Source: Escherichia coli (GTDB taxonomy: Bacteria; Pseudomonadota; Gammaproteobacteria; Enterobacterales; Enterobacteriaceae). Taken from it: 64,000 nt of DNA. Numbering within the stretch: position 1 is the first letter of the stretch; each line of letters begins with the position of its first letter. Positions 10,731 through 10,862 of the stretch are shown piece by piece. The position numbers and the translations under genes are program-made. The stretch lies in assembly GCF_003334405.1 (NCBI RefSeq), contig NZ_QOWM01000004.1; one strand, given 5' to 3'. The notes below the pieces were generated by a model, which worked only from the letters and a program-made list of their open reading frames with translations, did not search any database and was not told the DNA's origin.

Positions 10731-10862
10731 AATTTTCCTGTCTTTGCCTCTTATCTCATTGAAATAGTGTAGTCGGCGTCACAAAAAGGTGCGGTCTTAC
10801 GGAATTTTCCGTAAAGTTCGGTACTCTGAGTAAGTAGAGATAAATTCTTCAGGAGAGAAGCC

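Follow-up and report, generated by a model that had tools for sequence, protein, structure and literature searches.

A Conserved Inverted Repeat between ybhP and ybhQ of Escherichia coli: A Probable Sigma-E Promoter Element Overlapping a Putative Operator

Introduction

The divergent genes ybhP and ybhQ of Escherichia coli are separated by a short control region that contains an inverted repeat, and we propose, with a probability of about one half, that this repeat is a composite control element, in which the -35 of a sigma-E promoter for ybhQ is combined with a putative site for a dimeric protein serving ybhP. The proposal builds on the sequence, its conservation, the constancy of its spacings, and published work in which ybhQ depends on sigma-E and ybhP on RpoS; from these we infer where both transcripts start, that a protein binds, which protein this is, and in which direction it regulates, and the parts would fit together as follows. 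On the plus strand, GGAATTTTC would serve as the -35 recognized by sigma-E (RpoE), with TCTGA lying 17 nt on and the ybhQ transcript starting near A10836. The whole dyad, comprising the core GGA-N4-TCC and the flanks TTAC and GTAA, would be bound by a dimeric helix-turn-helix regulator, centered ~46 bp upstream of a sigma-S-type ybhP start (-10 CTACACT, poor -35). From this position, the bound protein would most likely aid RNA polymerase at the ybhP-clsB-ybhN promoter and, because it would cover the sigma-E -35, would also block transcription of ybhQ. The leading candidate for such a protein is the envelope-stress response regulator RcsB.

Operators of divergent regions that double as a promoter element provide a precedent for this arrangement: as in those systems, one dyad overlies a -35 on one side and precedes the promoter on the other side, which would let a single bound protein act oppositely on the two genes; the present region differs from them in that no regulator gene is adjacent. 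The first-pass annotation of this DNA had suggested a shared operator for an unknown regulator, a suggestion that stands in part. The repeat does lie in a divergent control region, is under strong selection, and forms a dyad of the protein-binding type, but it is tied to ybhP and not equally to both genes, and its left arm and center double as a sigma-E -35, which needs no extra regulator. It is their overlap that suggests that one protein might control both promoters. The regulator table of a 2023 paper lists ybhP-clsB-ybhN with ppGpp only, and a search of the searchable literature for the literal dyad sequence matched only unrelated eukaryotic papers.

Sequence and Position of the Repeat

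Positions are given throughout in coordinates of the window, by which we mean the whole stretch of 64,000 nucleotides that was analyzed; a window position x corresponds to MG1655 position x + 813,767, which places the dyad at MG1655 824,564-824,581. On re-reading the sequence, the window has TACGGAATTTTCCGTA at 10798-10813, exactly as annotated at the first pass, and the perfect 7-bp arms described there are present, their true length being 8 bp, with one base more on each side. The inverted-repeat scan gives the full dyad as TTACGGAA-TT-TTCCGTAA, with perfect 8-bp arms and a 2-bp spacer, and within it a conserved core RGA-N4-TCY occupies 10801-10810. The dyad is single-copy in a scan of the window. 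Its placement between divergent genes, also part of the original annotation, agrees with the RefSeq annotation, which bears out both gene names: the repeat lies inside the 132-bp gap between the minus-strand ybhP and the plus-strand ybhQ, with its center at 10805.5, 9 bp off the intergenic midpoint toward ybhQ. Of 5426 complete E. coli genomes, 5424 have the locus, annotated with the same genes. The features of the region are collected in Table 1. At its other end, ybhQ (plus) overlaps the minus-strand ybhR by 39 bp in a convergent arrangement of their 3' ends (window 11235-11273), and this pair has been named a convergent "excludon" (PMC12288877).

Table 1. Features of the ybhP/ybhQ Control Region in Window Coordinates
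Feature	Position	Strand	Description and basis
ybhP	9969..10730	minus	first gene of the ybhP-clsB-ybhN operon; RefSeq annotation
Predicted ybhP start, A	10759..10760	minus	6-7 nt past the -10 hexamer; deduced from the position of the -10
Sigma-S-type -10 CTACACT	10766..10772	minus	hexamer TACACT plus -13 C; alignment and RpoS dependence
A-tract AAAAAG	10783..10788	plus	UP-element-like; about -53 to -48 of the proposed ybhQ start; conserved
Conserved TGCGG (minus strand CCGCA)	10790..10794	minus	at the ybhP -35 position; conservation 0.87-1.0; presumptive role
Dyad TTACGGAA-TT-TTCCGTAA	10797..10814	none	proposed operator for a dimeric DNA-binding protein; sequence and conservation
Proposed sigma-E -35 GGAATTTTC	10801..10809	plus	consensus GGAACTTTT; PMC1312014 motif, Salmonella ChIP-seq, sigma-E induction
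Proposed sigma-E -10 TCTGA	10825..10829	plus	17 nt past GGAATTT; T10825, C10826, and T10827 invariant
Predicted ybhQ start, conserved AG	10836..10837	plus	6 nt past TCTGA, 28 nt past the -35
ybhQ	10863..11273	plus	small inner-membrane protein; RefSeq annotation

Conservation and Selection

Orthologous loci were collected through YbhP, which yielded 80 loci and 67 distinct intergenic sequences from about 20 enterobacterial genera for alignment; intergenic length is near constant among the orthologous loci, at 130-135 bp. Across the 67 distinct sequences, the 18 dyad columns have a mean conservation of 0.98, with 9 of the 18 invariant, which makes the dyad the most conserved 18-bp window of an intergenic region whose mean is 0.86. 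As a neutral reference, we took the four-fold degenerate sites of ybhP in these genomes: the 49 sites have a mean of 0.58, and none of them is invariant. Of 5422 E. coli genomes, 5417 have one and the same sequence over the 41 nt that enclose the dyad; widening the comparison to 60 nt, by 10 bases on one side and 9 on the other, brings in a SNP in 1296 genomes. The core varies in the alignment only as G/A at 10801 and C/T at 10810, and the outer bases TTAC (10797-10800) and CGTAA (10810-10814) are near-invariant, above the level of the sigma-E -10 itself. Judged by these comparisons, the repeat is real and under strong purifying selection.

One of the collected loci (L001, NZ_AADV02000322.1) is labeled Crocosphaera watsonii WH 8501; it is a 2-kb contig with YbhP and YbhQ 100% identical to those of E. 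coli and the same 132-bp gap, and is almost certainly E. coli contamination of a cyanobacterial assembly.

The Proposed ybhQ Promoter

Very probably, ybhQ has a sigma-E promoter whose -35 is formed by the left arm and center of the repeat and whose start is that predicted in Table 1. According to Rhodius et al. 2006 (PMC1312014), sigma-E promoters have a -35 of GGAACTTTT and a -10 of (T/C)GGTCAAAA, a spacer of 15-19 nt (16 preferred), a discriminator of 5-6 nt, a -35 to +1 distance of 25-28 nt, a purine start, and A/T-rich peaks near -48/-49; the main text of that paper does not mention ybhQ. The GGAATTTTC element, invariant in Enterobacteriaceae, agrees with this -35 consensus at 7 of 9 positions, the strongly conserved C of GGAACTT being replaced by T. 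In every one of the 76 scored loci in which ybhQ is present and a -10 can be recognized, the spacer measures 17 nt, a length within the allowed range but not the preferred one, and the -10 takes the form TCTGA in 61 of these loci, TCTCA in 7, and TCTTC in 8. TCTGA is an accepted variant of TCAAA, as in rpoH P3 and degP. For a predicted start at A10836, the 6-nt discriminator and the 28 nt from -35 to +1 both fit the sigma-E ranges, and A10836 and G10837 are each 96% conserved inside a variable stretch. Farther upstream, the A-tract belongs to a conserved block, GTCACAAAAAG (10778-10788).

Published expression and occupancy data point the same way. Overproduction of sigma-E in E. coli raised ybhQ 5.0-fold, and the gene is also marked there as reported by Kabir et al.; a ybhQ transcription start (ybhQ2) answers sigma-E induction within minutes; and sigma-E ChIP-seq in Salmonella gives a peak at 880214-880293, between ybhP and ybhQ, that carries a consensus motif. 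This peak maps to about window 10784-10863, over the proposed -35, the anchor for the mapping being a published cloning primer that puts base 880226 of Salmonella 14028S at about window 10796. With a sigma-E -35 in the left arm and center, part of the conservation of the repeat is explained without an extra regulator.

Set beside rpoE P2, degP, and rpoH P3, the proposed ybhQ promoter is alike in its putative -35, 17-nt spacer, TCTGA-type -10, predicted 6-nt discriminator to a conserved purine, and upstream A-tract, as well as in its induction by sigma-E and its ChIP occupancy (at the orthologous Salmonella site). It is unlike them in having T for the conserved C of AAC, a spacer 1 base over the optimum, a perfect dyad, and sequence around and after the -35 that is conserved far beyond what a promoter needs.

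A sigma-E promoter in the opposite direction, toward ybhP, was considered and rejected: neither of the minus-strand -35-like sequences, GGAAAAT and CGAACTT, is followed at 15-19 nt by a -10, and conservation is lacking for the AAC of CGAACTT. We also observed a CRP-like pattern, TGTAG-N6-TCACA, at window 10768-10783, the pentamers of which are invariant across genera while the middle 6 bases vary. It overlaps the ybhP -10, and its center lies ~60.5 bp upstream of the predicted ybhQ start, at the position of a class I activator; its left half may be conserved simply as the sigma-S -10.

The ybhP Promoter

On the other side of the gap, the ybhP -10 is invariant in the 67 sequences but for one position, the variants being CTACAAT and, in Rahnella, CTATACT. 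A sigma-S -10 is of the CTAYACT type, with C at -13. The CCGCA at the -35 position is a poor match to TTGACA. Dependence on RpoS has been reported as 251-fold and 7-fold for ybhPO, the 251-fold value being that of ybhP in strain EDL933.

The dyad is held in register with this promoter. Its center is 34.5 bp from the -10 hexamer, or about -45.5 to -46.5 from the predicted start, and, measured from the -13 base, the dyad core lies equally far away in 75 loci and one base farther in one. Natural insertions of 26-125 bp all fall between the ybhP ATG and the -10, that is, in the transcribed leader, so that the stretch running from the -10 through the dyad to ybhQ is untouched. Because of this fixed spacing, the restriction of insertions to the leader, and the retention of the dyad in Rahnella described below, we regard the ybhP promoter as tied to the dyad, which on these comparisons would belong primarily to that promoter and not equally to both genes.

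The leader insertions are lineage-specific (L071, of ~125 bp, L062, L079, and L045), and by eye, that of L071 looks like an ERIC/IRU repeat. As a separate observation, expression of the operon (window about 7775-10730) drops in a zraR deletion: according to a published RNA-seq supplement, ybhP, clsB, and ybhN each lie ~8-10-fold below the wild type in LB; the drop is shared there with other RpoS-dependent genes, and is probably an indirect effect of RpoS or growth phase.

Separation of the Two Constraints

Two groups of loci separate the requirements of the two promoters. In four Rahnella loci (L038, L054, L056, and L058), ybhQ and TCTGA are absent and there is no divergent gene, the upstream neighbors being three different co-directional genes. 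The dyad is nevertheless kept at the same distance from the ybhP -10, with 14-16 of its 18 bases; homology stops at its outer edge, and RGA-N4-TCY is retained while the -35 match is weakened (AGATTT). YbhP of Rahnella is 83-85% identical to that of E. coli, against 70-73% for Erwiniaceae, and the gene occurs in three contexts, which suggests that the Rahnella ybhP operon was acquired horizontally together with its promoter up to the dyad.

The five Erwiniaceae loci show the opposite. The homologous sequence there is TTGCGGCATTATCCGAAA or a variant of it, and in four of the five GTCTGA still follows at 17 nt, whereas the left RGA is lost in all five (GGC or GGT) and the element lies 12 bp farther from the ybhP -10; only the ybhQ-side function is clearly retained at that distance. 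Since the losses in Erwiniaceae and Rahnella are opposite, two overlapping constraints can be separated. The constraint of the ybhQ promoter would be CGG...TCCGnAAA at a fixed distance from TCTGA, and the upstream constraint of ybhP would be the RGA-N4-TCY dyad at a fixed distance from the sigma-S -10.

Two of the Erwiniaceae loci (L085 and L086, labeled Erwinia amylovora and Pantoea sp. BAV 3049) have another 7-bp repeat upstream of ybhP, GCCGCAA-TCT-TTGCGGC. It arises from 12 extra bases, is absent in the three other Erwiniaceae loci, and is centered near -48, at about the distance of the E. coli dyad from the ybhP -10.

These data bear directly on the simplest alternative to a composite element, namely that the conserved block is a sigma-E -35 and its spacer, that its symmetry is incidental, and that no separate regulator exists. 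We consider this possible, although on balance doubtful. The 9-nt published -35 (GGAACTTTT) spans 10801-10809 and thereby reaches into the right arm; the promoter is backed by expression data and by sigma-E ChIP; even Erwiniaceae, in which the ybhP spacing is not kept, hold the -10 at 17 nt; and a weakly conserved spacer sequence in sigma-E promoters is noted by Rhodius et al. (PMC1312014). A sigma-E promoter by itself would, however, leave three things unexplained: why TTAC and CGTAA are near-invariant, more so than the -10 itself, why the ybhP -10 lies at a constant distance, and why the dyad is retained in Rahnella, where ybhQ, TCTGA, and a divergent gene are all missing.

Candidate Regulators

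If the dyad of the proposed composite element is bound by a protein, RcsB is the best lead, by the motif core GGA-N4-TCC only, and we offer it as a lead and not as a finding. The dyad would then be an RcsB box, from which a phosphorylated RcsB homodimer would activate ybhP-clsB-ybhN under envelope stress, a specific proposal that we judge rather unlikely. The RcsB box consensus is TN(G/A)GAN4TC(T/C)NA, and structural and EMSA work has established that it is read out by two (G/A)GA motifs 4 bp apart. The dyad presents this pair as GGA (10801-10803) and TCC (10808-10810) on opposite strands, 4 bp apart and with an A/T-rich center; the only natural variants of the core, G/A and C/T, are the R and Y of the box; and the central 10 bp match the crystallized flhDC box, TAGGAAAAATCTTA, at 8 of 10 positions. 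Its position just upstream of a presumptive weak -35 also resembles that of the rprA and osmB boxes. Compared with the RcsB boxes of rprA, osmB, bdm, and flhDC as a group, it is alike in the opposed (G/A)GA pair, the 4-bp gap, and, less exactly, the placement at a weak -35, and its putative target operon is alike in responding to envelope and osmotic stress while also being sigma-S dependent, as are osmB and osmC.

Several details weigh against RcsB. The site departs from the strict consensus at both ends, having A10799 and T10812 where the box has its outer T and A; the bona fide bdm and osmB boxes also break the rule for the outer A, yet although these lack the final A, all have the first T. 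The flanks of the site, TTAC and GTAA, are invariant in their own right and thus point to another specificity. The information content of the bare core is low: RGA-N4-TCY has 30 occurrences in the 64-kb window. Between the center and the -10 hexamer there are 34.5 bp, whereas rprA has 30.5 bp (center at ~-42.5), which puts the site about 4 bp farther upstream. In EMSA, changing the second half-site from AGA to GGA diminished binding, and the present site has GGA on both strands. Among the Rcs studies in the searchable literature, none lists ybhP, and looking there for ChIP or EMSA results at this site gave no hit, as did looking for expression of the operon in an rcsB mutant.

Expression data appeared at first sight to favor Rcs: under a LolCDE inhibitor, with Rcs strongly active, ybhP rises 18-33-fold, clsB 12-24-fold, and ybhN 4-9-fold, alongside Rcs targets. 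This RNA-seq lead was rejected because in the full table ybhP behaves like osmY, yjbJ, ytjA, and ybgS. RpoS alone explains the induction, and since plain sigma-S osmotic genes are induced equally, it is not counted for Rcs.

A fuller version of the composite reading, in which RcsB or another dimeric helix-turn-helix protein makes the dyad a switch that recruits sigma-S or sigma-70 polymerase to ybhP-clsB-ybhN while masking the sigma-E -35 of ybhQ, is in our estimate improbable.

CpxR is a very improbable candidate. The CpxR consensus is the direct repeat GTAAA-N5-GTAAA, and here GTAAA of the right arm (10811-10815) is followed 5 nt downstream by GTAC(T), GTA at 10821-10823 being conserved while the 5 bases between vary; Cpx targets are, moreover, induced in the same LolCDE dataset. 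The second repeat, GTAC(T) or GTAG(T), agrees with GTAAA in only 3 of its 5 bases, Rahnella has lost it while keeping the dyad, and the left arm would go unexplained. In the accessible part of a study of five two-component systems by ChIP-exo and RNA-seq, ybhP appears only in the zraR-deletion comparison, and there is no CpxR entry for ybhP or ybhQ. The CpxR direct repeat was rejected on the loss in Rahnella and on this lack of any CpxR binding or regulation in the material accessible to us.

Other motifs were compared with the dyad. Sites of NarL/NarP have a 7-2-7 layout with consensus TACYYMT-NN-AKRRGTA; the dyad shares this layout and the outer TAC and GTA, and activating sites near -44 to -45 are known, but positions 4, 5, and 7 of its heptamers are GG and A in place of YY and T, and ybhP and ybhQ have no known link to nitrate or nitrite control. 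Palindromes of the IclR/AllR type, built on TGGAAA, seem to fit poorly, their GGA-to-TCC spacing being wrong. The sigma-28 -35 is matched by TAAAGTTT at 7 of 8 positions but is not accompanied by a -10. The ARG box, Fis, sigma-54, DeoR, SlyA, and LysR-type T-N11-A motifs seem likewise ill-fitting.

CecR, considered as a local regulator, was rejected, as the cecR-rhlE intergenic region has a different palindrome. That palindrome is a perfect 8-bp repeat, TTAATCAA-ATGA-TTGATTAA, at window 16891-16910, adjoining the cecR start in the cecR-rhlE gap; it is plausible as an operator of CecR, a TetR-family protein, and its sequence is unrelated to that of the ybhP/ybhQ dyad. Elsewhere in the window, a 30-bp perfect palindrome, with halves TTCTGCATGGTTATG and CATAACCATGCAGAA, occupies 35406-35435 in the rhtA-dps gap, 8 bp past the rhtA stop; a T-rich run follows it on the rhtA strand, and it is most likely the intrinsic terminator of rhtA.

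RNA Structure and Chance

A role as an RNA element, whether a hairpin in the ybhP or ybhQ leader or a terminator, is scarcely credible. Folding energies of -9.5 or -8.5 kcal/mol are obtained for the region, corresponding to z-scores of -2.2 and -3.1 relative to shuffled sequences, but the repeat lies upstream of both predicted starts, and no T-run follows it. The promoter and terminator scan gave no sigma-70 promoter and no terminator at the site, and an Rfam search of the region returned no match. The arms, furthermore, do not change together: the pairs at 10801/10810 are GC in 59 of the 67 sequences, GT in 4, AT in 1, and AC in 3, so that the arms show no compensatory changes. Such independent change is, on the alignment, the signature of a protein-binding dyad and not of an RNA stem. 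Given arms that vary independently, the null result in Rfam, a weak hairpin, and the lack of a terminator, the repeat is therefore a selected signal at the level of DNA and not an RNA structure.

By count, the repeat is unremarkable. Perfect 8-bp repeats with a 0-4-bp spacer number 10 in the window (3 of them nested within one long palindrome), where ~4.9 would be expected, and there are 7 perfect repeats of 7 bp around a 2-bp spacer; at about one per 13 kb, repeats of this size are common, and their number alone is not beyond chance. A chance palindrome with no function of its own, which this near-expected rate would allow, is effectively refuted by the conservation of the site (0.98 against a neutral 0.58), its invariance in ~5,400 E. 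coli genomes with polymorphic flanks, and its fixed spacing to two promoter elements, and it is because of this conservation that we regard the repeat as non-random despite its count.

Biological Significance

The claim to novelty is modest. The element would combine a sigma-E promoter with an overlapping, previously uncharacterized putative operator, both of known kinds. Its interest lies first in the operon that it may control: clsB is the least understood of the three cardiolipin synthases of E. coli, and its regulation is known only as RpoS- and ppGpp-dependent. An 18-bp site fixed by selection across Enterobacteriaceae has now been pinned down upstream of this operon, overlapping a probable sigma-E promoter, and comparative genomics sorts which of its bases go with ybhP and which with ybhQ, thereby providing a precise and inexpensive experimental target. 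If nothing binds the dyad, what remains is a well-documented sigma-E promoter with unusual sequence constraints. If the binder is RcsB or another envelope-stress regulator, the site would link cardiolipin synthesis to envelope-stress signaling. Were the dyad to act as a switch between the two promoters, cardiolipin synthase B would come under direct envelope-stress control, and, since cardiolipin deficiency is reported to activate Rcs (bioRxiv 10.1101/522219), a feedback loop of lipid homeostasis would be closed.
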